Shown piece after piece: positions 798 through 14,349 of a stretch of DNA of 24,000 nucleotides (position 1 is the first letter of the stretch; each line of letters opens with the position of its first letter). A model generated the notes under the pieces. The model saw nothing but the letters and a program-made list of their open reading frames with translations, did not search any database and was not told the origin of the DNA. The translations under genes were made by a program, and so were the position numbers. Source of the DNA: Ferrovum sp. JA12. Its GTDB lineage: Bacteria; Pseudomonadota; Gammaproteobacteria; Burkholderiales; Ferrovaceae. The stretch spans positions 563,352 to 587,351 of the forward strand of contig NZ_LJWX01000002.1 of assembly GCF_001431705.1 (NCBI RefSeq), in the 5' to 3' direction.

Positions 798-1072
798 CCC
801 AAGACCCCGGGCTCACTCAGCAACTTCTTCAGGCGCGGCTTGCTTTGCACCGGCCGATCCAACGCTTCCTGGAAGGCCTGCCATTGCGCCTTGTCCAGTA
901 CGAACTGGCGACGATCAGCCAGTGTTTGGGCTGCCGCCGTCACGCCCGCGTCGAGCAGGAATTCGCTGACGTTTTTGTGACAAGCGCGCGCAGCTTCCTG
1001 CAGCAGTTGCTTGACTGGTGTGCTTGCTCGGACGTCAATGCGTTCGGTCTTGGAAATATTCAGGGTGCTCAT
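794..1072 (-). CDS. DUF1778-family (TacA-like, RHH) antitoxin
   Basis: Start chosen at the ATG at 1072 (MSTLNISKTERIDVRASTPVKQLLQEAA...), preceded by GGAGG 6 nt upstream. 92 aa, with the typical DUF1778 N-terminus. Overlaps the GNAT gene by 4 nt. The longer track ORF (to 1183) lacks an RBS. Confidence 0.85.
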   Translation of the reverse strand: MSTLNISKTERIDVRASTPVKQLLQEAARACHKNVSEFLLDAGVTAAAQTLADRRQFVLDKAQWQAFQEALDRPVQSKPRLKKLLSEPGVLG

Positions 1073-1100
1073 GGTGGCCCTCCGGACTTTAGATGCTCTT

Positions 1101-1130
1101 ATTATAGTTGTCCGGACGCTGTCCTGACAA
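1101..1130 (-). promoter_or_regulatory. Sigma70-type promoter of the DUF1778/GNAT operon, with an inverted-repeat operator in the spacer
   Basis: Minus strand reads TTGTCA (1130..1125), 18-nt spacer, TATAAT (1106..1101), about 30 nt upstream of the ATG at 1072. The inverted repeat TTGTCAGGAC/GTCCGGACAA (9 of 10 positions complementary) spans the -35 box and spacer. Confidence 0.5.
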
Positions 1131-1240
1131 GTCTTTTTGTTGCCTATTTTGTTGCCTCTGCTCTCAGCCATATGCGTGTGCATCCGCGTTGCGATACGTC
1201 AGGAGTTGTCGATAACTACCGACAAAACGCAAAGATGGTG

Positions 1241-1530
1241 GTTCCCTTCGCCACCCAATGCCGCAATCCAACCGCTTGATTCATCCGCGCGTAACACTTT
1301 GATCGGTATGGCGCTGACTTGTGGCCTTTGCGGACTTCGGGTTGGATTCGGAGAGCGAAGTCGGAGAGAAGAATGGCTGGGAGAGAGTGGAAAGAGGCCT
1401 TGGGTGGGCACTTTGGCTGATCGGTGAAGTCCGCAGGCTTTCGCACGAACCCTCGTAAACACGCGGGAACTGGCGCCATCGGACAAGAAGAAACCCCAAC
1501 CGAGAACGGTTGAGGTTTCATTATTGGTGG
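1241..1530. repeat. Copy 1 of a 290-bp conserved non-coding terminal region. It ends in a degenerate terminator hairpin followed by TTATTGGTGG.
   Basis: Hand alignment to 13636..13925 gives 217/290 identical positions and no indels. Conserved blocks include CTTTGCGGACTTCGG, CGGAGAGAAGAATGGC, AAGTCCGCAGG, AAACACGCGGGAACTG and CCCCAACCGAGAACGGTTG. Confidence 0.85.
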
Positions 1531-1709
1531 TGGAATCGCCGCCAGGTTCAAACCATGTCTGTTACGTGATTGCGAACATGTGAGGATTGGCGCGGAACAC
1601 CGCGGAATCATAATGTTACTACCCGCCGCTCTCGTGTCTCGTGGCTTTCGCCTCAAATTGGCTCTGTCAACATGTCCCGATCACCAATCAGTTCGATCCC
1701 CGTTTTCGC

Positions 1710-1726
1710 AATCGAACCCGCGTCCG
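1710..1726. repeat. Left copy of the 17-bp direct repeat AATCGAACCCGCGTCCG (att-type island boundary)
   Basis: Exact match to 13936..13952, which lies in the T-arm region of the tmRNA gene. The flanking bases differ on both sides. Confidence 0.8.
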
Positions 1727-1733
1727 TAATTAA

Positions 1734-2480
1734 TCAAAGCAGCCGCACCGGGCGTGCAATCTTAGGTCTTCGAGCTTGGCTGGCGGTCTGGAGGTTGGCC
1801 GACTTGGAGAGAATCCGCAGGATTGCCTGGCTGTGGTGATAGATCCGAAAGGCATCTGCGACTGCCTTCTCGACGAATGTGGGCGTCGTCTGCCCGTCAG
1901 CGGGTGGGGACACGACTCCGTCTGGGATGTCACCTGACCATCCCCTAGCAGCCCGAAAACCACTAACGATGTGTGAAAAATGCGGCCAGGCGTGATCCAG
2001 ATGGGCGTCGTCGATGCTGACCATCACGCCAGTCAGTTCGCACGCAACCTGCCCCTGAGCATCCCCATGCTCTGCGAAGGCACGCTTCTTGGCCAGAACG
2101 AGGTCGAGCGCCACAGCCTCCCGGCATGCTCCATAGAAGTCTTTTGACCGGTCCCCAGGTAGACCTTTGACGGCCCAGATGTAAGAAAAGTCTGTGGCGG
2201 AACCGTCCTGACGTACGACCCAGAATCCGGAATTGCTCCAGCCAGTACCAGTATTCAAGCGCCGCTCAAAGTAATCGATTTGGCCGCTACCCTTCGTCGG
2301 TTCTCCGACCTCCTCAAGAATCGGGTCATATCGTTCGATGAGGGCAACGAGGTCGGCGTGGTCCCCCGGGTCAGAGATACGATCCCCGTCCTGGTACCGG
2401 TGTAGCAGTGCCTTGTAATGGTCCAGTGCGCTTTTCTGGGTCCGGAAGCTGCGGGGTCCAATCTCGACGGGTTTTGCCAT
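1734..2480 (-). CDS. DUF3223-like protein with a C-terminal HNH-like (DH...P) segment
   Basis: 248-aa ORF with a strong RBS (GAGGAGAGGAAACC-ATG). N-terminal pattern F.T...A...Y..LL.RY..G..I......DL.AL..R...........G.G.I..F......G......F.VVR.DGS..DFSY resembles DUF3223. The C-terminus has CELTG......DDAHLDHAWP.F. The stop is 7 nt from the left direct repeat. Confidence 0.55.
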   Translation of the reverse strand: MAKPVEIGPRSFRTQKSALDHYKALLHRYQDGDRISDPGDHADLVALIERYDPILEEVGEPTKGSGQIDYFERRLNTGTGWSNSGFWVVRQDGSATDFSYIWAVKGLPGDRSKDFYGACREAVALDLVLAKKRAFAEHGDAQGQVACELTGVMVSIDDAHLDHAWPHFSHIVSGFRAARGWSGDIPDGVVSPPADGQTTPTFVEKAVADAFRIYHHSQAILRILSKSANLQTASQARRPKIARPVRLL

Positions 2481-2765
2481 GGTTTCCTCTCCTCACTACT
2501 GACAAACAGCAGATACGACGCTACCGACAAACAGCTCGATCCCGCACATCAAAGTAAATCACGCCAGCGTCTCTGGCTTGAGGTGAAGCTCTGCGAAATT
2601 CTGCATGGCGCTCGTACCGATCCTTTTATCGCCACGCCGCTTGTGGTTATCACAATGCGATGTACAAACAAATCAAAATAGAGCAATGGACAAATTCTAG
2701 GGCAGATCATATACTTTCCGCAATAACCCGTATAAGCATTCGCTAACCCGAACGAGCCAGCCAGG

Positions 2766-3071
2766 ATGTCGAACGAACAGCTTGCAGATCTAACCCAGCC
2801 ACAACGCGACCGGCTCGCGTTCGTGGAGTTGCGCGTGCGCTTCATCGGGGAGATACGCCGCCAGGACTTGGTCACGCGGTTTGGCATCCAGTCCGCCGCC
2901 GCATCCAGGGATCTGGCGCCGTACAAGGACTTGGCGCCCGGCAACATCGACTACGACCCCAAGGGCAAGTCCTACGTCCTGGGGCCAGACTTCCGGCCCG
3001 TCTTCGACTTCCCCTCGGATCGGGTGCTGTCGTGGTTGACCCAGCGCTTGAACTTCTTGGCGTTGGGTTGA
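2766..3071 (+). pseudogene. Truncated N-terminal wHTH part of a WYL-type transcriptional regulator. The ligand-binding part is missing.
   Basis: The 101-aa ORF (QRDRLAFVELRVRFIGEIRRQDLVTRFGIQSAAASRDLAPYKDLAPGNIDYDPKGKSYVLGPDFRPVF) matches, from memory, the first ~90 aa of ~300-aa wHTH-WYL regulators. After ~3037 the frame runs antisense into the BRO gene and stops. Confidence 0.45.
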
Positions 3072-3319
3072 TTACTGCCAAGGATGAGCGCATACAGTCC
3101 GGATTCATTGATGTGATTGGTTGGCTGGATGCCTCCTTCTGTAAGGGTGTCACGTTTCGTGACATCCTCTGGATCAACGTGATCGGCAACCGATTTACGG
3201 GCATTGCTGTAACCCAGTACTCCGCACACATCTTTGGCGTTGAACCAAGGCGCATCGGTTTCGTCGAGGCAAACGCGAATGGAATGACTCTCGAAATTAA
3301 ACGGGATAATATTGCTCAT
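2972..3319 (-). CDS. BRO-N domain protein (phage antirepressor family), truncated at the C-terminal end of the domain
   Basis: FNFESHSIRV...APWFNAKDVCGVLGY.N.....A...H.....DV........TEGG.Q....INESGLYALILGSNQPNAKKFKRWV is a textbook BRO-N pattern. The expected ..EVLPSIRK.G.Y is replaced by 21 unrelated residues. The ATG overlaps the upstream stop by 4 nt. Confidence 0.75.
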   Translation of the reverse strand: MSNIIPFNFESHSIRVCLDETDAPWFNAKDVCGVLGYSNARKSVADHVDPEDVTKRDTLTEGGIQPTNHINESGLYALILGSNQPNAKKFKRWVNHDSTRSEGKSKTGRKSGPRT

Positions 3320-3819
3320 TGTTGATTCTCCTTTACGAGAGCAAGGCGGTAGCTGGCCTTGCCCGATTTGACGGTGCGGGCCTTGGCAAACGACTCCTTG
3401 AGCGTTGCAGGCCAGGCGTTGAAACGGGATTCAGAAACCGAGTACTCGATGTCGATGTAGTCGCTGACTTTGTCGCCGGAAGCCGTGATGCGATGAGCAA
3501 TCTCGGCCAGTTGGACCTGATCCCACGCGACACGCTTCGGCACATCGACGGTGATCCGCAGCGGACCGTCATCGAGATGGCAGACGCCGAAATCACGTCC
3601 ATTTGCCTGACGGGCGGCCGTAGCCTGTTCGGCATAACGCTGGTCGAGAGCAGCATGGAAGCGTTCCAGCACACCCTTGATGGCCGACTGCAACGTGAGC
3701 AGATTGGTATGCGTTTCCTGCAACTGCGCTACAGGCAACGCAGCGATCTGAGCGACGCTCATTTCGGCCAGAGGCAGAACGTGGCCGAACACGACATTTG
3801 TGATGGTGGAATCGTTCAT
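3316..3819 (-). CDS. Hypothetical protein (167 aa) with a coiled-coil-like N-terminal half. Middle gene of the AlpA-like operon.
   Basis: Long ORF with a 4-nt start/stop overlap to both neighbours. No motif recognised. Confidence 0.65.
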   Translation of the reverse strand: MNDSTITNVVFGHVLPLAEMSVAQIAALPVAQLQETHTNLLTLQSAIKGVLERFHAALDQRYAEQATAARQANGRDFGVCHLDDGPLRITVDVPKRVAWDQVQLAEIAHRITASGDKVSDYIDIEYSVSESRFNAWPATLKESFAKARTVKSGKASYRLALVKENQQ

Positions 3820-4067
3820 ATGCGATCCCTCCCCGTGGTGGCTGAGGCTGGAACAACCCTAGTGCTCGGACTCTCGTGCAGGCAGTCGAGCTCGAATTGC
3901 TCGATGTCTTCAAGGCGGTACATCACCTTGCCGCCGATCTTGAGGTACCTGGGGCCGACGCCATCGGACCGATAGCGTTCTATGGTGGCTTCCGACTTGT
4001 TCCAGCGATCCGCAAGTTCCCGCTGGGTCAGATGCCTGGTCTTCAGATGTTCGTCATACATTTGCAT
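3816..4067 (-). CDS. AlpA/excisionase-type (MerR-like) HTH DNA-binding protein
   Basis: LTQRELADRWNKSEATIERYRSDGVGPRYLKIGGKVMYRLEDIEQFE is the typical excisionase-family HTH_17 pattern. Start taken at the ATG at 4067, just after AAGGAG (the ATG at 4061 is equally possible). The track start at 4190 is TTG with no RBS. Confidence 0.7.
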   Translation of the reverse strand: MQMYDEHLKTRHLTQRELADRWNKSEATIERYRSDGVGPRYLKIGGKVMYRLEDIEQFELDCLHESPSTRVVPASATTGRDRI

Positions 4068-4207
4068 CTCCTTCGATGATGGGTGTTCACCGGTTGCTGG
4101 TGCCTGGATCAGCACTGCTAACCGATGCGTCCATTTCATCAAGCGAGATGCCCCCGACCGTCCCTCAGATTCCTCAAGATCGTTCCTCAAATTGAATCGG
4201 TGGGTCT

Positions 4208-4249
4208 AAAAAGCAAAAAACCCGGCTGGATTGAAACCAGAGCCGGGTT
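4208..4249 (-). terminator. Rho-independent terminator ending the five-gene minus-strand cluster
   Basis: Minus strand reads AACCCGGCT, 13-nt loop, AGCCGGGTT, then TTTTGCTTTTT. It lies 31 nt downstream of the stop at 4280. Confidence 0.7.
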
Positions 4250-4279
4250 ATTGCGGAGAAGCGAGGGGTGACAGGTGGT

Positions 4280-5245
4280 TCAGTGCAACCAGTCGCGGTC
4301 GTCGTCAGGAATGATCAGAGCGTAGCGTTCATCGTCGCGCAGGTAACGGATGAATGCCCTGTAGACTTCTGGATTGCGCTCAAACTCCTTGCTGGGTGAA
4401 AACCGCTGGGATTGCGATCCGCAAGCGGTCTTGAGCGATTCCTTATCCAATTCATGATCCAGATCGTCGATCAGTGCAACCAGGATCTTTTGTTGGCGTG
4501 GCTCCAGCGGATACTCGGTACCATCGATGAACGCCTTGGCTTTGTCTCTGACGTAGCGGAGTGTGGTGTTTGGCGATGCCTCATCCAGAATTTGAGGACC
4601 AGGTGCCGATTGGCGCTCAGGGAAAAACTCGAACTTGCTCTGGCCGACGCGGCCAACTGTGAACAGCGGGCGCACGTCGAATTCGGTCAGTGCCGAGCCC
4701 GCCGGAAGCGGTACCTCGCTACTGGTCAAAATGACGCAGGATTGCGTAGTTCTTTCTGTGGTGATCTGTTCGCGCAGGCGAATCGCAATTTCCGGCCGAT
4801 GCAGGCGGCGAGCGAAATACCATGTCACCGGCTTGCCACGCTGTTTCTCGGTCGTGCCGAGCCGCCAGATCAGATCGAGTTCGATCTGCTTCATGCCGTT
4901 GACCGAGAGTTCGAGCCCGTTCAGCAGGCTCGAAACAAATTTCTGCAATGCCACCTTGTAGGTTTCGCGCAAATGCCCAGGTGCCACCACGTCGGCGCAT
5001 TCCGGACAGTGCAGAATAAACTCGCCAGGCGATTTTTCTCGTACCACGTGCGCGGTCTCGATGCCGCATTCCGGGCAAGTGACCCAGTCGAGCGGCTTGC
5101 CCAGCACCAGTACACGTTCACGAAGCAGGTGCGTGGCCGCGACCTTGTCCCGTCCTTCCAAAAGAGACTGCCCATTGATTTCCGGCTTCGCCAGATCCAG
5201 AAGCCGGCAAAACAACGCCGTTGCATCGACCTGCGCCTGACTCAT
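4280..5245 (-). CDS. Hypothetical protein (321 aa) with an N-terminal CxxC...CxxC zinc ribbon. Third gene of an unknown triplet.
   Basis: CPECGIETAHVVREKSPGEFILHCPEC is present. There is no Walker A or recognisable nuclease motif. The ATG overlaps the upstream stop by 4 nt and a terminator follows. Confidence 0.75.
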   Translation of the reverse strand: MSQAQVDATALFCRLLDLAKPEINGQSLLEGRDKVAATHLLRERVLVLGKPLDWVTCPECGIETAHVVREKSPGEFILHCPECADVVAPGHLRETYKVALQKFVSSLLNGLELSVNGMKQIELDLIWRLGTTEKQRGKPVTWYFARRLHRPEIAIRLREQITTERTTQSCVILTSSEVPLPAGSALTEFDVRPLFTVGRVGQSKFEFFPERQSAPGPQILDEASPNTTLRYVRDKAKAFIDGTEYPLEPRQQKILVALIDDLDHELDKESLKTACGSQSQRFSPSKEFERNPEVYRAFIRYLRDDERYALIIPDDDRDWLH

Positions 5246-6150
5246 TCGCCTTCCTCGTCCCCGGTCGAGGCGATCTCAGTCGGCTCGTCTGGCTCGACGA
5301 CATTCAAGGCAAGCAGCACGGCATTGGCGATGGCCTGATTCTGCGCGGACAGGTTCTTGATCGTTGAGGAGCCCGACGAAAATAGATCAAAGCTGAAATA
5401 ATGGTTCTTTCCCTTGTCACGCGTATCTGTATAGACGATGACGCTAGCTCCTTCCATGTTGTATTCCGCCTCGAAGGAGCGATCGACCTTCAGCGCATTG
5501 AGGGCAATCCGGATCGCATCGTCCTGATCCTTGTCGGGGGATGCCTCCACCTGAAAGGCGATTCCAGTACTTCCTGACGGACAGAAACGTGCGCGCCGCA
5601 AGCGGACTTTGTCGATACCGAGGGTCGACCAGTCCTCGAATGGCTCCATCAGCCCGTCGCGCAGGGCATTGAGCTGGTAGCGCTTCTTTTCGATCACCTC
5701 AGGCGTGAGTTCCTGGGCAACGACATGCTTGCCGAACAGTTGCAGCACGGCGGTGTGGTTCTTCGCACCTCCCTTGACGATGGTCTCCACGATGCCTGAG
5801 CCGGGATGGTAGACGATGGCTGTTTCCAGCGCAATGCGGGTCGTGAGTCGCGTAAAATTGTTCTGGGCAAAGTGCGCGAGGGCAGTCACAGGCCCTTCGA
5901 CATAGATCGTGAGTTGAATGCTTTCATCGACCGGGCGCTCGCTGACCTCGATATGGATGCCGTCGCCAGCGCCGTCCTTCTTGTAGAGTTTGGCGACATC
6001 GTGACAGAAAGCCTCGAGTTGGGTGCGGTCGCGCGTGGGGTCGAGTCCCGCCTGGATGCGATGCTTCTTCCAGTACTTGCCATTGGTCTTGGCCTGGAAG
6101 GCGATGTGCAGTTCGGCATCACGGAACGTCTTTTCACGGTTGGTCATCAT
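5242..6150 (-). CDS. Hypothetical protein (302 aa) with an acidic C-terminal tail. Second gene of the unknown triplet.
   Basis: Long ORF with normal amino-acid composition, overlapping both neighbours by 4 nt. No motif recognised. Confidence 0.75.
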   Translation of the reverse strand: MMTNREKTFRDAELHIAFQAKTNGKYWKKHRIQAGLDPTRDRTQLEAFCHDVAKLYKKDGAGDGIHIEVSERPVDESIQLTIYVEGPVTALAHFAQNNFTRLTTRIALETAIVYHPGSGIVETIVKGGAKNHTAVLQLFGKHVVAQELTPEVIEKKRYQLNALRDGLMEPFEDWSTLGIDKVRLRRARFCPSGSTGIAFQVEASPDKDQDDAIRIALNALKVDRSFEAEYNMEGASVIVYTDTRDKGKNHYFSFDLFSSGSSTIKNLSAQNQAIANAVLLALNVVEPDEPTEIASTGDEEGE

Positions 6151-6512
6151 CCAGAGGGCGCTTTCACGCTCGTCGCGCGATGCGAAGTCCTCCTGGAGGC
6201 CTGATCATCGGCACAGGCACAGCGGAATTCCTGAATGGCCAGATTGTTTGACATCATGTGGGCGCGACGCAGGTCATCATGCCAGAGCCACAAATCATGC
6301 TCGATGGCTTTGCGCCCTGTCGGGTCAATAGCGGGATCGCGCAAAGAAGCATCGAGGGCTTCAACCGCATCAGCCACGGCGGCGGGTAGCGTCTCGGGAG
6401 GTTGCGTCCAGTCGACGAGCAGCCTCGCGCCAAGGATATGCCCGTCAGTGAATTCCTGAAGCGTCGGCATCGAGACATGCCGCAGAAAGTGCCGAGCGTT
6501 GAAAACCTTCAT
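6147..6512 (-). CDS. Hypothetical protein (121 aa). First gene of the unknown triplet.
   Basis: ATG at 6512 preceded by AAAGGGGAACAGGA. The stop overlaps the next start (ATGATGA). The last ~25 residues are low-complexity (see finding on a possible split gene). Confidence 0.6.
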   Translation of the reverse strand: MKVFNARHFLRHVSMPTLQEFTDGHILGARLLVDWTQPPETLPAAVADAVEALDASLRDPAIDPTGRKAIEHDLWLWHDDLRRAHMMSNNLAIQEFRCACADDQASRRTSHRATSVKAPSG

Positions 6513-6630
6513 TCCTGTTCCCCTTTCATTCAGCCATTCAAAAATTCATAAGCAATCCTCCCGGCATGACTGGAAGTTGGCCCGGATTTCTTGTCTACGA
6601 ATCAAGACCACGGCGCCATCATGCCGTCGG

Positions 6631-7152
6631 CTATGGAATGATGCCCATCCGAATCTTGGTCTTGATGCTCGAAAGCCAGTCTTCCCGGTATTGCAGGGCA
6701 AATGCATCGAGGTTGGCGCGACCGACTCCTGCCTGGCGTGCCAGATATTCCAGAGAGACTGCGCAGTCGAGCCAGCCGAGTGCGTGTGTGGCAATCAATG
6801 CCGCCTTATCGGCGGTGGTCACGACCACGATGGCCGAAGGCAACAGGTTGTTGGCGAGCAGCCAGGCCAGCAGATGCTTCTCACCATCGTCGAGCGTGCC
6901 GCAGGACGGATGGGCGAGTACCACGGACGCCAGTTCCTTGCGCGTCACCGGATGCTGTCCGGCAAGACCTTCGTTCAGTTCGGCAGGAGGAACCGCGATG
7001 TGACGGGGATCAGACGGGTTGCCGGTGAGCGTCTCCTCGACGCACTTCTGAACTGTTTCGATCGCAAAATGGCTGCTGATTGCCGTCCAGCAGCCGGTTC
7101 GAAATGCTTCGAGGATGACGTTGGTATCGGCAAAGACTCGGGTTTTCGGCAT
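6631..7152 (-). CDS. PIN-domain-like nuclease (putative toxin/effector partner of the XRE-ImmA protein)
   Basis: N-terminal VFADTNVILEA, then LDDGEKHLLAW and VVTTADKA, fit the acidic triad spacing of PIN folds. It starts 12 nt after the ImmA gene stop. Confidence 0.65.
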   Translation of the reverse strand: MPKTRVFADTNVILEAFRTGCWTAISSHFAIETVQKCVEETLTGNPSDPRHIAVPPAELNEGLAGQHPVTRKELASVVLAHPSCGTLDDGEKHLLAWLLANNLLPSAIVVVTTADKAALIATHALGWLDCAVSLEYLARQAGVGRANLDAFALQYREDWLSSIKTKIRMGIIP

Positions 7153-7164
7153 ACGGTCCGCACC

Positions 7165-8286
7165 TCATAACTCAAACGGTGCTGGGAGATCGTACTGGGC
7201 GAACAGTTCGGTCAGACCACCAAGACCCAGCCCCATGGCTTTTGCTGCCTTGCGGGCCGACAGTCGTCCATTCTCCAATGACTCGTGCAGCATGCGCACG
7301 AAGGCAACGGAGAACCGCTTGGGGGGGCCTGACACCGAGGGTCGCTGCTTCTCTTGACAGAGATTGCGACGGGTGTCGTCACTGATGAGCTTGAGGTTGA
7401 ACAACCGCCACGCCAATGCCACCGGCGCCACGCGCAGCAGCGCTGCGACTTCGCACAGGTGGGGGATGTCATCCCGGCGATTGCCATCGATCAGTTGGGT
7501 CAATGAAATGCGCGGCATCAACAGGGCAGCGGCAAAGTTGTTCGCCAATTGCTCGATGCGTTTTCCCTTGTTGCGTTCCTCGATGGAATTCGATTCCCGA
7601 TGATCGGGTTGCATCGCATCCCAGGTGAGCGCATGAAAAAGCTCGTGCGCCAGATCGTAGTAGCGACGCGCCTCGCTCTCGTTGCGGTTGATGAGTATGA
7701 CGCCCATTTCCTCGAGGTGGCATGTCGCACCCGAGATGGATTGTCCTTCGCCAGCGTCAACCGTATCGACGAACAGCACCGGGATGTCCAGTTCGCGCTC
7801 GATCTTGTCGATCAGGGTTTCTGCCGGAATGATACCCAGGTCCAGTTCGGCAACGAGACTCTCTGCACGATCCTGTGCATCCTCGAACGATGACTGGGCA
7901 GACAGACGCAACGCGCGCTTGAGCACGCTTGCCCGGCCGCCTTGCCGTTCACGCAGCCAGCGGAGCAGGCCAATCCACTGACCAGCCTTCAATTCGAACC
8001 CGTCCAGACTGTCCTCAGGAACCTCGGGTGCCGTCCGCCACGAGAACTGTGCTTCTCCAGCCACGGCAAAAGGATCCACGAAAAACTCGATGTCACGATC
8101 CAGGAGGTCGGACAGCGCCAGCAGTTCCTCGGGCTTCAGCGCGCGCTTGCCGTTTTCGATGTCAGAAATCGACTGGCGGTCGTTCAGGCCCAATTCCTGG
8201 GTGAGTTGATCCTGCGTCCAGCCCGCCGCATCGCGCGCGGCTTTGACGCGGTAGCCGATCAATTTTTGCGAAATCTTTTCGAGCAT
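7165..8286 (-). CDS. XRE-family HTH fused to an ImmA/IrrE (COG2856, M78) zinc metallopeptidase domain
   Basis: The N-terminus GWTQDQLTQELGLNDRQSISDIENGKRALKPEELLALSDLL is an XRE HTH. The core has YDLAHELFHAL (HExxH) followed by EQLANNFAAALLMP, the ImmA/IrrE signature. Confidence 0.9.
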   Translation of the reverse strand: MLEKISQKLIGYRVKAARDAAGWTQDQLTQELGLNDRQSISDIENGKRALKPEELLALSDLLDRDIEFFVDPFAVAGEAQFSWRTAPEVPEDSLDGFELKAGQWIGLLRWLRERQGGRASVLKRALRLSAQSSFEDAQDRAESLVAELDLGIIPAETLIDKIERELDIPVLFVDTVDAGEGQSISGATCHLEEMGVILINRNESEARRYYDLAHELFHALTWDAMQPDHRESNSIEERNKGKRIEQLANNFAAALLMPRISLTQLIDGNRRDDIPHLCEVAALLRVAPVALAWRLFNLKLISDDTRRNLCQEKQRPSVSGPPKRFSVAFVRMLHESLENGRLSARKAAKAMGLGLGGLTELFAQYDLPAPFEL

Positions 8287-8305
8287 GGTTACCCCCTAAA
8301 CCAGT

Positions 8306-8334
8306 ATTTTAGTATTGCGTATTTAGAAAGGCAA
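8306..8334 (-). promoter_or_regulatory. Candidate sigma70 promoter for the XRE-ImmA cluster
   Basis: Minus strand reads TTGCCT (8334..8329), 17 nt, TAAAAT (8311..8306), ~20 nt upstream of GGGGG-N5-ATG at 8286. It sits in an AT-rich divergent intergenic region with GTATTT(T)AG direct repeats. Confidence 0.4.
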
Positions 8335-8505
8335 GAATTAATTGCTACTTGTTATTTGCATGAATTGTGCGTAAGTGTGGTCTGTGACCTTACTTCCGCA
8401 GTCACCTGCAGACGTTCGCAACGCTTGTCAATTCTGCGATGGAGAAAGACGATCTCCTTGCCCAGAATATCCATCAAGTAATTTTTATTGATGGAGTGCC
8501 CGACC

Positions 8506-8745
8506 ATGATGACAGCAAACTTGATTGACCCAACCCGAATGACCATCGAGGAACGACGAGCGGAAGTCGCATCGATACTGGCGCTCGGCGTTATGCGGTT
8601 GCGAACGAAGCCGGATGCGTTGGCCGAGAAAAATGAACCGCCTTATCTTGACTTCTGCCCACCACAACGCGTTCATACAAACCCGTCATCACGAGTTCGC
8701 AGCGCCATCCGCGAGGTGCTGCTGACCAAACAGAAAGGAGTTTGA
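8506..8745 (+). CDS. Small hypothetical protein (79 aa), first gene of the recombinase module
   Basis: ATG at 8506 lies 10 nt after GGAG. The stop at 8743..8745 abuts the ATG of the next gene at 8746. The start choice is uncertain (the track ORF starts at 8488). Confidence 0.5.
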   Translation: MMTANLIDPTRMTIEERRAEVASILALGVMRLRTKPDALAEKNEPPYLDFCPPQRVHTNPSSRVRSAIREVLLTKQKGV

Positions 8746-9231
8746 ATGAGCAAGAAAACCGTAGTCTCAGGCGTGATCGGCCGAATCGCGCACCTGCCCG
8801 ACACACCATTCGAAGAAATCAAATCGCTGTGGCAACAGATTTTCGCCACCCCCATGCCCACGCACAACCGTCAGTTTCTGGAACGGCGTATTGCCTACCG
8901 ACTGCAGGAAATCGAGTTTCGCAAAATTGATCGTAACCTGATGGATCGGAATGACCGTCGCATCAAAACCATCATAGAAACGGGCCAGAACAAAAAGCGC
9001 GATCGCGATCACCGTCCGGTTGCCGGTACATTGTTGACTCGGGAGTACAAGGGAGTAATTCACAAAGTGGTGGCAACCCCCGATGGTCAATATGACTTTC
9101 AGGGGCGTATGTACCCAAGCCTCTCCATGATTGCACGGGAGATCACCGGGACACGGTGGTCTGGTCCATTGTTCTTCGGGCTCAAGCCGTCAGCTACGAA
9201 ACCCACCTCCAAGAAAGGAGGTTGTCGATGA
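8746..9231 (+). CDS. DUF2924-like protein (usual partner of large serine recombinases)
   Basis: FLERRIAYRLQE ... G..L.REYKG..H.V......G.Y.F.GR.Y.SLS.IAREITGTRWSGPLFFGLK matches my recollection of DUF2924. The stop overlaps the recombinase ATG (ATGA), and AAAGGAGG lies inside its 3' end. Confidence 0.75.
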   Translation: MSKKTVVSGVIGRIAHLPDTPFEEIKSLWQQIFATPMPTHNRQFLERRIAYRLQEIEFRKIDRNLMDRNDRRIKTIIETGQNKKRDRDHRPVAGTLLTREYKGVIHKVVATPDGQYDFQGRMYPSLSMIAREITGTRWSGPLFFGLKPSATKPTSKKGGCR

Positions 9232-10583
9232 GCGAAGCACTGAAACGCCGTATGCGCTGCGCGGTCTACACGCGCAAGTCCACCGACGAGGGGCTGGACC
9301 AGGAATACAACTCGATCGACGCACAACGTGATGCGGGGCATGCCTACATCGCCAGCCAGCGCGCCGAGGGATGGATTCCGGTGGCAGACGACTACGATGA
9401 TCCGGCCTTCTCGGGCGGCAACATGGAACGCCCATCGCTGCGACGATTGATGGCCGACATCGAGGCCGGCAAGATCGATGTGGTCGTCATCTACAAGATC
9501 GACCGCCTGACGCGCAGCCTCGCGGACTTCTCCAAGATGGTCGAGGTGTTCGAGCGCTATGGCGTGTCGTTCGTGTCGGTCACCCAGCAATTCAACACCA
9601 CCACGTCGATGGGGCGGCTGATGTTGAACATCCTGCTGTCCTTCGCACAGTTCGAGCGCGAGGTCACCGGCGAGCGCATCCGCGACAAGATCGCCGCCAG
9701 TAAGCGCAAGGGCATGTGGATGGGCGGCGTGCCTCCCCTCGGTTACGACGTCGAGAACCGCCGACTGGTGCCCAACGAACGTGAGGCCAAGCTCATCCGG
9801 CACATCTTCCAGCGCTTCGTTGAACTGGGCTCCAGCACGATGCTGTTCAAGGAGCTGAAGCTCGACGGCGTGACGTCCAAGGCGTGGACCACGCAGGACG
9901 GCAAGACCCGAGACGGCAAGCCGATCGACAAGGGGCTGATCTACAAGCTGCTCAACAACCGGACCTACCTCGGTGAACTGCGCCACAAGGAGCAGTGGTA
10001 CCAGGCCGAGCATCCACCGATCATCGACCGAGAGTTGTGGGACAAGGTGCACGCCATCCTCGCCACCAACGGTCGGGTTCGCGGCAACGCCACCCGGGCG
10101 ACGGTGCCGTACCTGCTCAAGGGCATCGTGTTCGGCAACGACGGTCGCGCCTTGTCGCCGTTTCACACCACCAAGAAGAACGGTCGCCGCTACCGCTACT
10201 ACGTGCCGCAGCGCGAGAACAAGGAGCACGCGGGCGCGTCTGGGCTGCCACGGCTGCCGGCTGCAGAGCTTGAGTCCGCCGTGCTGGACCAACTGCGCGC
10301 GGTCCTGCGATCGCCGGATCTCCTGGGCGACGTCCTGCCACGAGCGATCGAACTCGACCCCAGCCTCGACGAGGCGAAGGTCACCGTCGCCATGACGCGG
10401 CTCGACGCCATATGGGAGCAGCTCTTCCCAGCCGAGCAGACGCGCATCGTCAAGCTGCTGGTCGAGAAGGTGATCGTGTCGCCCAACGACCTGGAAGTGC
10501 GGCTGCGCGCCAACGGCATCGAGCGTCTGGTGCTGGAACTGCAGCCAGCCGGCGCGGCCCAGCCCGAGGAGGCATTGGCATGA
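9228..10583 (+). CDS. Large serine recombinase (resolvase/invertase catalytic domain plus recombinase domain)
   Basis: CAVYTRKSTDEG contains the catalytic Ser context. Also present: DRLTRSL, GVSFVSVTQQFNTTTSMGRLMLNILLSFAQFEREVTGERIRDK, and GGVPPLGYD of the recombinase domain. 451 aa from the ATG at 9228. Confidence 0.95.
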   Translation: MSEALKRRMRCAVYTRKSTDEGLDQEYNSIDAQRDAGHAYIASQRAEGWIPVADDYDDPAFSGGNMERPSLRRLMADIEAGKIDVVVIYKIDRLTRSLADFSKMVEVFERYGVSFVSVTQQFNTTTSMGRLMLNILLSFAQFEREVTGERIRDKIAASKRKGMWMGGVPPLGYDVENRRLVPNEREAKLIRHIFQRFVELGSSTMLFKELKLDGVTSKAWTTQDGKTRDGKPIDKGLIYKLLNNRTYLGELRHKEQWYQAEHPPIIDRELWDKVHAILATNGRVRGNATRATVPYLLKGIVFGNDGRALSPFHTTKKNGRRYRYYVPQRENKEHAGASGLPRLPAAELESAVLDQLRAVLRSPDLLGDVLPRAIELDPSLDEAKVTVAMTRLDAIWEQLFPAEQTRIVKLLVEKVIVSPNDLEVRLRANGIERLVLELQPAGAAQPEEALA

Positions 10584-11029
10584 GCGAGATCCGCATCCAG
10601 AAGACGGGCGAGCCCGACGTCATCGAGGCCAGTGATGGGCGGCTGACTTTGTCGGTGCCGATCCAGATCAAGCGGCGCAGCGGGCGCAAGCTGGTCACGC
10701 TGCCGATCGACCCGGTGACGGGCGAACCAGCCAAGGCCAGACCCTGGGACACGGCCACCACGCCGTTGCAACTGGCGCTGGCCAGGGGTCACCGCTGGCT
10801 GGCCATGCTGGAGTCGGGCGAGGCCAAGTCCCTCAAGGAGATCGCCGCCCGGGAAGGGATCGACAACAGCTACGTCAGCCGGATGGTCAACCTGACCACG
10901 CTGGCACCCGACATCGTGGCGGCCATCCTGGACGATGCATTGCCGAACCACGTCACGCTGTTTGATCTGGCGGTTGATCCGCCAGCGCTGTGGGATGAGC
11001 AGCGGGCGAGACTTACAGTGAGCGGTTGA
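10580..11029 (+). CDS. HTH-type accessory protein downstream of the serine recombinase (possible directionality or targeting factor)
   Basis: The ATG overlaps the recombinase stop (ATGA). The C-terminal 85 aa are conserved in the paralogue at 3..263. The IAAREGIDNSYVSRMVNLTTLAPDIVAAIL segment looks like an HTH. Confidence 0.75.
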   Translation: MSEIRIQKTGEPDVIEASDGRLTLSVPIQIKRRSGRKLVTLPIDPVTGEPAKARPWDTATTPLQLALARGHRWLAMLESGEAKSLKEIAAREGIDNSYVSRMVNLTTLAPDIVAAILDDALPNHVTLFDLAVDPPALWDEQRARLTVSG

Positions 11030-11031
11030 TG

Positions 11032-11949
11032 CTACGTGACCAGGTCAGCTGTCAGCTTTTCCACCAACTCATTCGTGCTCGGCGCGTACGTTGGCAGCTG
11101 TCGCTGTGCTTGTCGAAATATCCCGACAAGTAAGCACGCCGTGAAGAGCCAGTAGTGCGACTCCTTGGCGAGCGGGCTGCCGGATATCATCGTCTGGATG
11201 CGCGTAGTAATCGGCGGATATTCCGCTGTTCCCCACCGAGCGCTTTCCGGGGTTATTTCGTGCAAGATCATTGCACCGAGTGCGATTCCCATTGATCGCT
11301 TATCCAGAACCCTTCTGAAAGCCTGGCCAACAGACTGGGCATAGTTTCCAATCTTGTCGGTCAGAAATGACCTTGCCCAGACATCGCATGCAATCTCTTC
11401 TTCGCGCCGGTCGGCGGGGTAGTCGCCGTCACTGAGAAATTTCACGTGCCGAAGTTCATGAAGAAAGACATAGGCGGTCGCCAGACAGACTAAGTCGAAA
11501 GCCGCCATTTCTTGATGGCTGCCGAGCGTTTCTCTATCGGCTTCAGGACGCGGAACATCTTGCGGCCAGGTGGTGTGCACCGAACTTTGCCCTTCGATGA
11601 TCGATCGAGCTGAATTTGAGCGAGACCTGTAATCCATCTCGAAAGAAGCAAGCTCGCCATCGGCGCGCAGTATGTCTTCAAGGGCCCCACCAGTGATGCC
11701 GGCGAGAATGATCGCTGGAGAGTACGTCTCGATTGATCTCCACCCATTGAAACCGAGCAGCCAGATTGCCTCGAGTGTCTTGTGGTCAAACTGGATGCGA
11801 CCCTTGCCCGCGCTGATGTTCACGCCTCGAGCGTCGTCGACTAGGCAGATCTTGGGTGCATAGCGATCCCATAGGTCCTCAATGTCTTGTTTTCGCTCAG
11901 GCGTGGCGCCTTGCAGCAGAGCCTTAACAGCGATGACTGCTTCAACCAT
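11032..11949 (-). CDS. HExxH zinc-metallopeptidase-like protein (305 aa), possibly Lit/peptidase-U49-like. Coupled to AbiEii.
   Basis: Start taken at the ATG at 11949 (MVEAVIAVKALL...), which overlaps the AbiEii stop (ATGGTTGA). It has YVFLHELRHVKF at residues 161-172 and EEEIACDVWARSFL ~20 aa later. The longer track ORF (to 12039) would run antisense-free but overlaps abiEii by ~100 nt. Confidence 0.6.
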   Translation of the reverse strand: MVEAVIAVKALLQGATPERKQDIEDLWDRYAPKICLVDDARGVNISAGKGRIQFDHKTLEAIWLLGFNGWRSIETYSPAIILAGITGGALEDILRADGELASFEMDYRSRSNSARSIIEGQSSVHTTWPQDVPRPEADRETLGSHQEMAAFDLVCLATAYVFLHELRHVKFLSDGDYPADRREEEIACDVWARSFLTDKIGNYAQSVGQAFRRVLDKRSMGIALGAMILHEITPESARWGTAEYPPITTRIQTMISGSPLAKESHYWLFTACLLVGIFRQAQRQLPTYAPSTNELVEKLTADLVT

Positions 11950-12964
11950 TGCTGCACCCATTGATCGTTGTTTCCAGCGCGCGCAGACGATCGGCGATGG
12001 CGTCGAAGGCGGGTGGCTCGCCGATGAACATGCCGGCACCGATCATGCGCTGGAAGTCATCGCGCAGCGCGGCCAGTGCGGCATCTTCCGGAATGAGTCT
12101 GAGCTGCCCGGCCAGGCATGCGTCGTAGTTGGCGTAGCTCGCGTTGTAGAAGACCTTTTTGTGCTTGACGACATCCGCGAGCAGAGCGCGATCGGCCAGA
12201 GCGGCTTGCCCATGGGCAAGATCAGCCAGCATGGCCAGGTCGTACCAGTGGCGTGACAAACGTTCGGCGCCAGTACGGAACTCGTCGCGCTGACACTCGA
12301 CGTGCATCAACGTCGCCTTCTCCCAGAAGGTACGCGCCGGGGACAGCACACTGACCTTCGAACGAGGAAAATCGAGCGCAGCGACATGCTCCGCGATGTC
12401 GGGCCGTACCTCATGCTTTTCGTTCGGCTCGGTGATGTTGCGACCACCGAACTCAATCAGGACGCTGTTGCCAACGTAGTCCCCCGGCGCATCAAGCACG
12501 GTCGGGTAGTGCACACGCAACTGCTCGCCGTCATCGCTGACTTCAAGCTGGAATGCGCCGGCATCGAACTCGGCTGCCAGTGTCCGCTGAAAGTGCGGTG
12601 CCACAACACCATGAGCATGATCGCGCACGAAGGACTTGAGATCCTCGCTGAATTTTTTCAGCCGATTGCGCGAGACGCCTTCGGCAAACGGATCGAAGGA
12701 ACCGTCCAAGCCACGGTAGTCGAGCGTGATGTCCACGTCTTCGGAGAAGCGTGCGATGGCTCCGAACACTTTGGATAGCGAGGTGCCACCCTTGAAGGCC
12801 ATCGGAAGTCGGCCGGGCATGGTGAACAGGGTCTGCAGCACCCAGCAGACCCAGACATCTTTTTCCAGGACTACGGGCGAGCGGGCAAGCTGCGGAGCCA
12901 GTGCCCGATAGATTTGGGACTGCTCTTGAGCTTTCAGGTGCAGGAAGGACTCAGGCATGAACAA
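11942..12964 (-). CDS. AbiEii/AbiGii-family nucleotidyltransferase toxin (DUF1814)
   Basis: EKDVWVCWVL..LF.......AFKGGTSLSK......RFSEDVDITLD is the characteristic N-terminal NTase motif of AbiEii. It overlaps the AbiEi gene by 14 nt. Confidence 0.85.
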   Translation of the reverse strand: MFMPESFLHLKAQEQSQIYRALAPQLARSPVVLEKDVWVCWVLQTLFTMPGRLPMAFKGGTSLSKVFGAIARFSEDVDITLDYRGLDGSFDPFAEGVSRNRLKKFSEDLKSFVRDHAHGVVAPHFQRTLAAEFDAGAFQLEVSDDGEQLRVHYPTVLDAPGDYVGNSVLIEFGGRNITEPNEKHEVRPDIAEHVAALDFPRSKVSVLSPARTFWEKATLMHVECQRDEFRTGAERLSRHWYDLAMLADLAHGQAALADRALLADVVKHKKVFYNASYANYDACLAGQLRLIPEDAALAALRDDFQRMIGAGMFIGEPPAFDAIADRLRALETTINGCSNG

Positions 12965-13571
12965 CCGTCCGCTCGCTCCGGAAGATGGCGTCGCTCATCC
13001 ATGCGGGCATTGAACTGGTGGCTGACTTCAGCACCCCGAATTCGCTTGATCCCAGCTTGCGCCGAATCTTCTCGACGAGAGCCGGCGTTACTTCCGTCTT
13101 GCCGAGGTACCACATCGCCGCAAGCGCGAGCCCGGCGGGTCGACCCGCCAAGGCCAACTTGCGCTGACAGACGTGCTGCAGACGGATCTCCATCTTCCCT
13201 ACGCGGATGCGCTTCGACGGGCCGGATGTCACGAATACCGACTGGGTCGGAACCTGCGTGGTCAGCTCGAGCCGACGCGCCGCTTCGGCACCGTGAACCT
13301 GGACGACGGCGCCAGTGGTCTTGGCGACCGTCTCGGCGACCTTCAAAGGCGAGGGACTAACCTTGCCGACGAAACGGCTAACCTCGGGGCGCACGAAGAC
13401 GCCGCGCGTCACACGCTCAATCGATCCTGCTTTGACGAGGCGGGAGAGGGTCTGATCGACGGACGCGCGCGTGCCGCACTCCAGGAATGCCGTTGGGGTG
13501 AAGGGCTCCCCAATCGGCATCGTCTCGATGCGCTGGCGAATCAGCTCGGCGGTCTTGGTCGTCGTGTTCAT
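12951..13571 (-). CDS. AbiEi-family (type IV TA) antitoxin / transcriptional regulator
   Basis: Start taken at the ATG at 13571 (MNTTTKTAELIRQRIETMPIGEPFTPTAFLECGTRASVDQTLSRLVKAGSIERVTRGVFVRP). This is the typical AbiEi N-terminal wHTH. The track ORF extension to 14024 crosses the terminator and tmRNA and is an artefact. Confidence 0.85.
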   Translation of the reverse strand: MNTTTKTAELIRQRIETMPIGEPFTPTAFLECGTRASVDQTLSRLVKAGSIERVTRGVFVRPEVSRFVGKVSPSPLKVAETVAKTTGAVVQVHGAEAARRLELTTQVPTQSVFVTSGPSKRIRVGKMEIRLQHVCQRKLALAGRPAGLALAAMWYLGKTEVTPALVEKIRRKLGSSEFGVLKSATSSMPAWMSDAIFRSERTVVHA

Positions 13572-13578
13572 GTATGAA

Positions 13579-13607
13579 AATATACGTGAGTTTCTGACAA
13601 ACAGCAA
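13579..13607 (-). promoter_or_regulatory. Candidate abiEi promoter giving a leaderless or near-leaderless mRNA
   Basis: Minus strand reads TTGCTG (13607..13602), 17 nt, TATATT (13584..13579), then only 7 nt (TTCATAC) before the ATG. There is no Shine-Dalgarno sequence. Confidence 0.45.
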
Positions 13608-13635
13608 GTGTGATGACTCACAGGGAGATGCTCGT

Positions 13636-13925
13636 GTTCCCTCCGGCAGCCAATGCTGCAATCCAACCGATTGAACGGTCCGCGCGTAACCCGTTGATTT
13701 CAAGGGGTGCCGGACCGGGTCTTTGCGGACTTCGGCGCATTCGCGGAGAGCGAGGCCGGAGAGAAGAATGGCCAGGAGAGAGCGAAAGGTTGCCGAGAAC
13801 GGGCCAGATGGCCGACCGGCCAAGTCCGCAGGTTTCCGCAGGAACCCGCGCAAACACGCGGGAACTGTCGCTGTCAGACGAGAAAAAGCCCCAACCGAGA
13901 ACGGTTGGGGCTTCGTTATTGGTGG
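13636..13925. repeat. Copy 2 of the 290-bp conserved non-coding terminal region. Includes the tmRNA terminator and the last bases of the tmRNA.
   Basis: See copy 1. Offset is exactly 12,395 nt, with 217/290 identities by hand count and no indels. Confidence 0.85.
13878..13912 (-). terminator. Rho-independent terminator of ssrA, carried on the island side
   Basis: Minus strand has the 11-bp stem AGCCCCAACCG/CGGTTGGGGCT with a 4-nt loop, followed by TTTTTCTCGTC. It starts 7 nt after the tmRNA CCA end. Confidence 0.75.
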
Positions 13926-14284
13926 AGGCGGCGGGAATCGAACCCGCGTCCGAAAGTCCTCTGCAGTCAGCTCTACATATTTAGCCTCGTTGTTGAATTT
14001 AACCACTAATACGTCAACGGACAAGCGGCTTAGTGACGATTCACCATAATTTTAATTCAGGAGGAGGTGACCCCCTCAAGAACGATTCTCTGTATATGAC
14101 TCCGCTACTTGGTTTCCCAAGCTCCAACCCAGAAGAACAATTGGTGCGGAGCCTAGCCTTAAGCGGCTAGGGCGTAGTTGTCGTCGTTGGCAACTATAAG
14201 TTTACCAGATGGATTTACGAGGTTTACTGGTCCTCGATATGCACTGAACTGTTTTGCAACCCCCGTCGAAGCCAGGTCGCCCCC
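13920..14284 (-). ncRNA. ssrA: tmRNA (transfer-messenger RNA)
   Basis: 5' end GGGGGCGACCTGGCTTCGACGGGGGTTGC. 3' end GGACGCGGGTTCGATTCCCGCCGCCTCCACCA. The acceptor stem GGGGGCG/CGCCTCC has the G3:U pair. The tag reading frame GCC AAC GAC GAC AAC TAC GCC CTA GCC GCT TAA (14191..14159) encodes ANDDNYALAA. Confidence 0.95.
13936..13952. repeat. Right copy of the 17-bp direct repeat, inside the tmRNA T-arm region
   Basis: Exact match to 1710..1726. Confidence 0.8.
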
Positions 14285-14349
14285 AATATTATTTTAATTA
14301 TCCAGTCTTTTAGGTTAAATGTCACGGTTTAATGTTATATTAAGGGAAT

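Follow-up and report, generated by a model that had tools for sequence, protein, structure and literature searches.

A predicted Lit-family protease gene as third cistron of an AbiE operon on a tmRNA-integrated island of Ferrovum sp. JA12

Canonical AbiE abortive-infection systems are bicistronic (PMC3985639). In a 24,000-nt stretch of the Ferrovum sp. JA12 genome (contig NZ_LJWX01000002.1, positions 563,352 to 587,351; the whole stretch is called the window below), an AbiE pair differs from these in having a third gene, predicted to encode a protease of the Lit family, translationally coupled to the toxin gene. Do the three genes form one defence system, or do two separate systems share an operon? 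A preliminary description of the locus had favoured the former and proposed an unusual three-component abortive-infection module. Our comparative analysis points to the latter. We consider it likely that two self-sufficient abortive-infection modules are stacked in one AbiEi-controlled operon, which occupies the variable cargo slot of an island that encodes a serine recombinase and has integrated at the tmRNA gene.

Profile searches bore out the proposal that the first two genes are abiEi and abiEii. The first protein matched PADLOC AbiEi (PDLC02226, 2.1e-64) and Pfam DUF6088 (3.6e-27); it differs from canonical AbiE antitoxins in falling slightly under the cutoff of Pfam AbiEi_4 (24.5 bits, cutoff 25). 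The second matched PADLOC AbiEii (PDLC02289, 6.2e-101) and Pfam AbiEii (PF08843, 1.5e-40, 140 bits). Its nucleotidyltransferase motif is intact in the translation (KGGTS at residues 56-60, EDVDI at 73-77), and an AbiEi-type winged helix-turn-helix antitoxin gene lies upstream and overlaps it. Judged by these sequence features, the pair is AbiEi/AbiEii. The layout resembles that of AbiE from L. lactis and S. agalactiae and of MenAT from M. tuberculosis, where a DUF1814 nucleotidyltransferase toxin with an intact motif follows a COG5340-type winged helix-turn-helix antitoxin/regulator and the genes overlap.

The third protein had been suggested to be a Lit-like protease, to be checked by profile search against Peptidase_U49 and M78, and the suggestion held. 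It matched the NCBIfam equivalog NF007238 'phage exclusion protein Lit' over residues 2-302 of 305 (315.5 bits, cutoff 274, 3.4e-94), PADLOC Lit (1.1e-15) and, marginally, Pfam Peptidase_U49 (PF10463, 24.7 bits, cutoff 23.9); the same search gave no M78 match. Identity to E. coli K-12 Lit was 24% over 258 aa (E 3e-14). The size and motif position given for the E. coli protein proved right (297 aa, HExxH at 160-164): HELRH, found by direct translation at residues 164-168 as described, aligned with E. coli HEISH (H160/E161/H164), and the downstream EEEIACD at 183-189, within REEEIACD, aligned with QEEREAD. In an alignment of 20 homologues, 32-87% identical to the window protein, H164, E165, H168, E184, E185, C188 and D189 were invariant. 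The window copy is full length and has all of the invariant family residues. An AlphaFold2 model was confident (pLDDT 93.9, pTM 0.92) and mainly helical; a Foldseek search of the PDB with this model gave no significant match (best E 1.5), and a profile search of PDB sequences gave a chance match only; neither search placed the fold in a metalloprotease clan. The family is small: among 1.84 billion representatives it accounts for 815 clusters at 50% identity (E<=1e-3), and almost all of these are single-domain proteins of ~305 aa. A Methylococcus protein 88% identical to the window Lit is already named 'phage exclusion protein Lit family protein' at NCBI. On sequence, the third gene is a distant member of the Lit family (Peptidase U49).

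Both gene junctions have the same geometry. The abiEii start overlaps the abiEi stop by 8 nt (ATGCCTGA), and the Lit start overlaps the abiEii stop by 8 nt (ATGGTTGA), with the abiEii stop codon TGA (11944-11942) inside ATGGTTGA. The overlap of abiEii with the 305-aa open reading frame (ORF) is therefore as first described, and an in-frame alternative Lit ATG at 11961, four codons upstream, would overlap abiEii as well. The last 4-5 residues of AbiEii (..INGCSNG) are encoded by sequence that overlaps the Lit start. Among ten related genome loci (given below by their locus numbers), the 8-nt abiEii-Lit overlap is kept in eight, and in L004/L005 the abiEii stop lies 4 nt before the Lit ATG. The ATGGTTGA overlap is conserved in L001-3, L006, L039 and L048; in L033 the start has changed from ATG to ATA. 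Retained in 8/10 of the compared loci, the junction exceeds chance.

No strong Shine-Dalgarno sequence was seen before lit in the window. A consensus scan of positions 10300-14300 for promoters and terminators found no promoter-like site, the region upstream of abiEi included, and only the terminator hairpin of the tmRNA gene; it was uninformative on an internal lit promoter. Reading by eye, we noted a candidate abiE operon promoter (TTGCTG-17 nt-TATATT) that ends 7 nt 5' of the abiEi ATG and is flanked by GTGAGT/ACTCAC inverted hexamers. At this distance from the ATG it would make the mRNA leaderless or nearly so, and the inverted hexamers around the candidate -35 element could be an AbiEi operator. 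Since neither a promoter nor a strong ribosome-binding site is evident for lit itself, its expression is probably low and set by AbiEi.

We surveyed the linkage from the Lit side by scanning one genome per species, which yielded 80 Lit loci (70 distinct). AbiEi-AbiEii was found upstream in ten genome loci only, in the same arrangement each time, and these are the loci in which Lit is at least 80% identical to that of the window. They come from Methylococcus, Alcanivorax, Uliginosibacterium, Massilia and several metagenome-assembled genomes (MAGs), and several adjoin a tmRNA gene. DNA identity of 84-92% reaches through the recombinase gene; the ten loci thus form one recently spread island lineage and are not independent associations. 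Lit is broken in six of the ten, at differing points: it has lost its C-terminal 96 residues in L005, ends directly after HELRH in L006, ends upstream of this motif in L033, L039 and L048, and carries internal deletions in L043. The ORF of AbiEi (94-97% identical) is complete in each of the ten loci, and that of AbiEii in nine.

From the AbiEii side, homologues fell into more than 6,900 clusters (E<=1e-20), compared with 56 Lit clusters in the same database. Close relatives of the island were found without Lit: Methylocaldum marinum (L082) and Sulfuriferula (S. plumbiphila, L086/L087) carry the same island, with an AbiEii 94% identical to that of the window and no Lit. In L082 and L086 a 334-aa AbiEii adjoins a convergent gene of 147-150 aa, followed by the recombinase and DUF2924 genes; in L088-L090 Lit sits between AbiEii and this island core. 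Lit-free AbiEii relatives end in ..INQ at 334 aa, and the 338-aa form ending ..ING(C/G)(S/G)(N/D)G is a plain read-through over the Lit start. We tried the C-terminal tail as a stand-in for Lit linkage and found it imperfect, as ..AING tails also precede Lit. Among 112 AbiEii clusters of at least 79% identity, 26 had the Lit-junction tail, which is a lower bound because ..AING tails can precede Lit too (L004/L005), and 48 had ..INQ-like ends. A neighbour-joining tree does not separate AbiEii proteins that have the Lit-junction tail from those that lack it; the two types are interleaved, and there is therefore no sign of co-adaptation. Some islands retain footprints of the gene. Six Lit codons (MVEAGN) are left in L091, followed by other cargo (DUF1801, AHSA1, SymE), and Lit residues 1-58 remain at 53% identity in L093/L094. 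By their sequence these footprints confirm Lit loss.

A metagenome survey, covering the best 80 loci (AbiEii 53-94% identical), gave the same picture. Lit was intact in three loci (L103, and L111/L112 at 74-76% Lit identity) and degraded in eight (L097, L098, L100, L101, L104, L106, L107, L152). None of the ~55 metagenome loci with an AbiEii 53-84% identical had Lit behind it. Where Lit was missing the next gene was mostly convergent or set apart by a spacer, as in the canonical layout of two genes. Taking genome and metagenome loci together, ~14 of ~21 AbiE-linked Lit copies are truncated, frameshifted or remnants. Co-inheritance of the three genes throughout this AbiE lineage, which the preliminary description had implied, is contradicted by this decay and by the AbiE-only islands at 94% identity. 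One further branch of this AbiE lineage, whose AbiEii is 85% identical and 337 aa long with the tail ..INER, has another small ORF at the position of Lit; it encodes 71 aa, has no Pfam match and overlaps the abiEii stop (L095, 5004-5219; L096).

The AbiE lineage persists without Lit, Lit is often lost while AbiE stays, and Lit is not specific to AbiE; for these reasons we favour two autonomous modules. What each would do can be proposed from homologues. S. agalactiae AbiEi binds AbiEii and induces its auto-phosphorylation, and the MenT homologues of mycobacteria block translation by modifying the acceptor stems of tRNAs (PMC3985639, PMC7450476 and, on AbiE/MenT, bioRxiv 10.64898/2026.01.19.700257). 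E. coli Lit cleaves elongation factor Tu (EF-Tu) at Gly59-Ile60 when a phage capsid peptide, the Gol peptide of T4 gp23, binds EF-Tu (PMC3014915). By homology, AbiEi would repress a single promoter upstream of abiEi and neutralise AbiEii; once released, AbiEii would act as a DUF1814 nucleotidyltransferase and block translation through modification of the tRNA acceptor stem. The Lit homologue would be a latent zinc metallopeptidase that cleaves EF-Tu once a phage late protein is made, again stopping translation. The anatomy of the junction suggests that ribosomes terminating at the abiEii stop would reinitiate on lit (termination-reinitiation), and that lit expression would be low and governed by AbiEi. 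The two modules would then act in parallel, with different triggers and neither requiring the other.

Several points weigh against this reading. The tight overlap, with neither a separate promoter nor a strong Shine-Dalgarno sequence, ties lit to abiEii, and an integrated system would look alike. Both effectors are predicted to strike the delivery of aminoacyl-tRNA, and this may point to functional cooperation. The DUF1814 toxin-antitoxin system sanaTA, for which proteolytic loss of the antitoxin is the proposed trigger, would be a precedent for a protease link. Co-directional genes within 135 nt upstream of Lit (47 of 69 distinct loci, below) hint at a general partner dependence of Lit. Finally, part of the Lit frameshifts in MAGs may be assembly errors.

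An integrated three-component system, in which the Lit-like protease triggers or executes AbiE, for instance by degrading AbiEi on infection or by being activated by the product of AbiEii, seems improbable to us. It would account for the translational coupling at ATGGTTGA, retained in relatives, and for the missing promoter and strong Shine-Dalgarno sequence of lit, and sanaTA, proposed to be activated when Lon degrades its antitoxin, offers a parallel. Yet the same AbiE occurs alone at 94% AbiEii identity, Lit has decayed independently in about two thirds of the linked copies while AbiE is intact in nine of the ten genome loci, no Lit follows AbiEii below 84% identity, and AbiEii proteins with the Lit tail do not separate in the tree from those lacking it. 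Moreover, E. coli Lit and the lactococcal and streptococcal AbiE systems each function alone (PMC3014915, PMC3985639). Together with the different neighbours of other Lit clades, these findings speak against the module as first proposed.

Those neighbours also bear on a broader alternative, that Lit-family proteases are generic add-on effectors wired to any upstream defence gene, which they would need for sensing or licensing. The upstream ORF is co-directional in 58 of 69 distinct Lit loci and within 135 nt in 47. AbiE precedes Lit only in the clade whose members share at least 70% identity with the window protein, and the idea that the family is specific to AbiE was thus not upheld. Other clades follow PD-T7-1, large nucleoside triphosphatases (NTPases), HamB, a prokaryotic Argonaute (pAgo) or toxin-antitoxin genes, and the type of partner tracks the Lit clade. 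PD-T7-1 was upstream in 15 of 58 non-AbiE loci; the remaining upstream genes include P-loop/STAND-like NTPases of ~1,300 aa, Hachiman HamB, a pAgo, HEPN, TacA and ParE. The ~1,300-aa NTPase gene ends 4 nt before Lit or overlaps its start in L018 (2089-5967), L032, L036 (1859-5947) and L037; in L055 (NTPase at 906-4895) a 375-aa ORF lies between the two and overlaps Lit. Only the L055 protein scored above the Pfam cutoff among these STAND-like NTPases, and that of L036 has an N-terminal helix-turn-helix domain. This arrangement raises the possibility that Lit acts as a separately encoded effector beside large NTPases. We had also taken the upstream gene of L045 for a STAND NTPase and rejected this, since Pfam identifies a DEAD-box helicase matching Hachiman HamB.

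In spite of these associations, we regard generic add-on effectors as an unlikely explanation. The partners are mutually unrelated and several are known single-gene systems. Adjacency can be explained by clustering in defence islands, and the neighbour figures are raw counts. Lit of the PD-T7-1 clade has its own strong Shine-Dalgarno sequence and a 53-81-nt spacer, and E. coli Lit is autonomous and stands alone in e14 as a monocistronic gene, with a 457-nt gap upstream. We give a small chance to a bolder version, in which Lit-family proteases are not stand-alone but modular downstream effectors or back-ups licensed by the co-transcribed defence gene, and in which the tRNA-modifying nucleotidyltransferase and the EF-Tu protease of AbiE-Lit would be functionally wired.

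The PD-T7-1 association usually takes the form of a four-gene block in a distant Lit clade, consisting of a 307-aa protein, PD-T7-1, Lit and a MUG113/T5orf172 gene. In the example at L026:3526-7416, the 307-aa protein weakly matches PD-T7-1/PD-T7-5, the PD-T7-1-like protein has 471 aa (PADLOC 1e-83), Lit has 307 aa and the MUG113/T5orf172 protein 167 aa; the same block was found in L009, L012, L013, L017, L023, L024, L027, L028, L030, L035 and L063, among others. A 797-aa ORF in Methylobacterium (L025, 4501-6894) first appeared to be a PD-T7-1-Lit fusion. It was rejected because it appears to result from a single frameshift near the PD-T7-1 stop in one genome only; rather than a conserved fusion, it is probably a sequence error or an isolated event. 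An identical PD-T7-1/Lit locus, in which Lit is frameshifted, recurs in eleven genomes (L063-L073; Afipia, Bradyrhizobium japonicum, Sphingorhabdus and Rhizorhabdus MAGs). As these genomes are assigned to different species, we suspect a contaminant common to them or else transfer in the very recent past.

Ratios of non-synonymous to synonymous substitution rates (dN/dS) were 0.03-0.08 for AbiEi, 0.09-0.25 for AbiEii and 0.12-0.40 for intact Lit, and values so far below 1 indicate that intact Lit copies are under purifying selection. That the window lit is a non-functional passenger heading for decay is very unlikely: most related copies are truncated or frameshifted and Lit dN/dS lies above that of AbiE, but the window copy is neither truncated nor altered at any invariant residue, dN/dS of intact copies stays well under 1, and the AlphaFold2 model is confident.

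The two stacked modules make up a cassette of 2.5 kb that begins ~350 nt from the 3' end of the tmRNA gene, which was the sole match in an Rfam scan. G+C content falls from ~0.60 to ~0.44 at 13.9-14.0 kb. Because this drop coincides with a complete tmRNA gene, we take ssrA as the integration site of the island and the cassette as its first cargo. On the other side lie the island core genes, DUF2924, serine recombinase and a 149-aa gene, joined through ATGA overlaps; the recombinase was found in every related island that extends far enough. A distance of 2 nt separates the stop of the 149-aa gene from that of Lit or, in Lit-free relatives, from that of AbiEii, and thus the cargo boundary is exact to the codon. 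Coordinates are collected in the table.

Table. Features of the AbiE-Lit cassette and of the adjoining island core in the window
Feature	Position	Strand	Remarks
tmRNA gene (ssrA), integration target, complete	13920..14284	minus	ARAGORN; Rfam RF00023, 216 bits
Candidate abiE operon promoter, TTGCTG-17 nt-TATATT	13572..13615	minus	by-eye reading, inference only; unflagged by strict consensus scan
abiEi (antitoxin and transcriptional regulator)	13571..12951	minus	206 aa
Overlap of abiEii start with abiEi stop, ATGCCTGA	12958-12951	minus	8 nt; sequence read directly
abiEii (DUF1814 nucleotidyltransferase toxin)	12958..11942	minus	338 aa counted from ATG
Overlap of Lit start with abiEii stop, ATGGTTGA	11949-11942	minus	8 nt; sequence read directly
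Third gene, predicted Lit-family (Peptidase U49) HExxH metallopeptidase	11949..11032	minus	305 aa from ATG (MVEAV...)
HELRH, residues 164-168, predicted zinc-binding/catalytic motif	11460-11446	minus	direct translation
EEEIACD, residues 183-189, second conserved acidic motif	11403-11383	minus	direct translation
Convergent island core gene, 149 aa	10580..11029	plus	weak Pfam SoPB_HTH match (0.0047); inner edge of cargo slot
Large serine recombinase, 451 aa from ATG	9228..10583	plus	Pfam Resolvase 1.3e-39, Recombinase, Zn_ribbon_recom
DUF2924 gene, island core	8746-9231		

Two islands of the same family stand in tandem at the tmRNA gene, at 1-1730 and 1730-13935 of the window. A 20-mer of the tmRNA T-arm (13936-13955) recurs at 1710-1729, the 290-bp element end (13636-13928) recurs at 1241-1533 with 79-83% identity, and the small-gene region 10761-11004 recurs at 1-244. 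In place of AbiE-Lit, the second element carries a toxin-antitoxin pair in its cargo slot, TacA (794-1183) with a GNAT toxin (279-797). A regulator gene of the HTH_3 + Peptidase_M78 (ImmA/IrrE-like) type lies within the island at 7165-8286, and in the relative L088 an M78 gene is similarly placed past the recombinase. The cassette was absent from the plasmid and phage collections searched; the recombinase alone matched megaplasmids, and the Lit protein had no phage match.

The window Lit resembles Lit of the E. coli element e14 (MEROPS U49, b1139, cell death peptidase, 297 aa) in being a single domain of ~300 aa, in having HExxH at a matching position followed by an acidic EE...D motif, and in lying on an integrated mobile element beside a recombinase. 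The two differ in sequence, with only 24% identity, and in context: e14 lit is monocistronic, whereas the window gene overlaps the abiEii stop and has no evident promoter. A parallel for the arrangement is the anticodon nuclease PrrC, which is encoded within the EcoprrI restriction-modification operon; EcoprrI keeps PrrC latent and T4 Stp releases it. Here too a latent, translation-targeting phage-exclusion effector lies inside the operon of another defence system on a mobile element, but PrrC and its host system are wired together in function, while the comparative evidence for AbiE-Lit points to independence. In tripartite toxin-antitoxin systems (toxin-antitoxin-chaperone; sanaTA with host Lon) a third protein or protease can control antitoxin stability in defence. 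The third component is required and co-inherited there; in AbiE-Lit it is optional and often lost.

Both protein families, the stacking of defence genes on mobile elements and the Lit-family annotation at NCBI are known already. Literature searches on AbiE with Lit, on Peptidase U49 and on PD-T7-1 with Lit found no report of AbiE-Lit linkage; the arrangement is undescribed, and it is labile. Lit is among the oldest known abortive-infection proteins and has been studied almost solely in E. coli e14. At the Ferrovum locus a distinct clade of proteobacterial Lit proteins is represented by the final gene of an AbiE operon, carried by an island that targets tmRNA, and more broadly Lit homologues usually stand directly behind other defence genes. 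If Lit were licensed by such partners, partner-dependent control of a protease effector would be revealed. If, as we think likely, the two modules are stacked, the locus would be a clean natural case of defence-gene gain and loss in the cargo slot of a mobile element, and a compact cassette with which additive protection could be examined.

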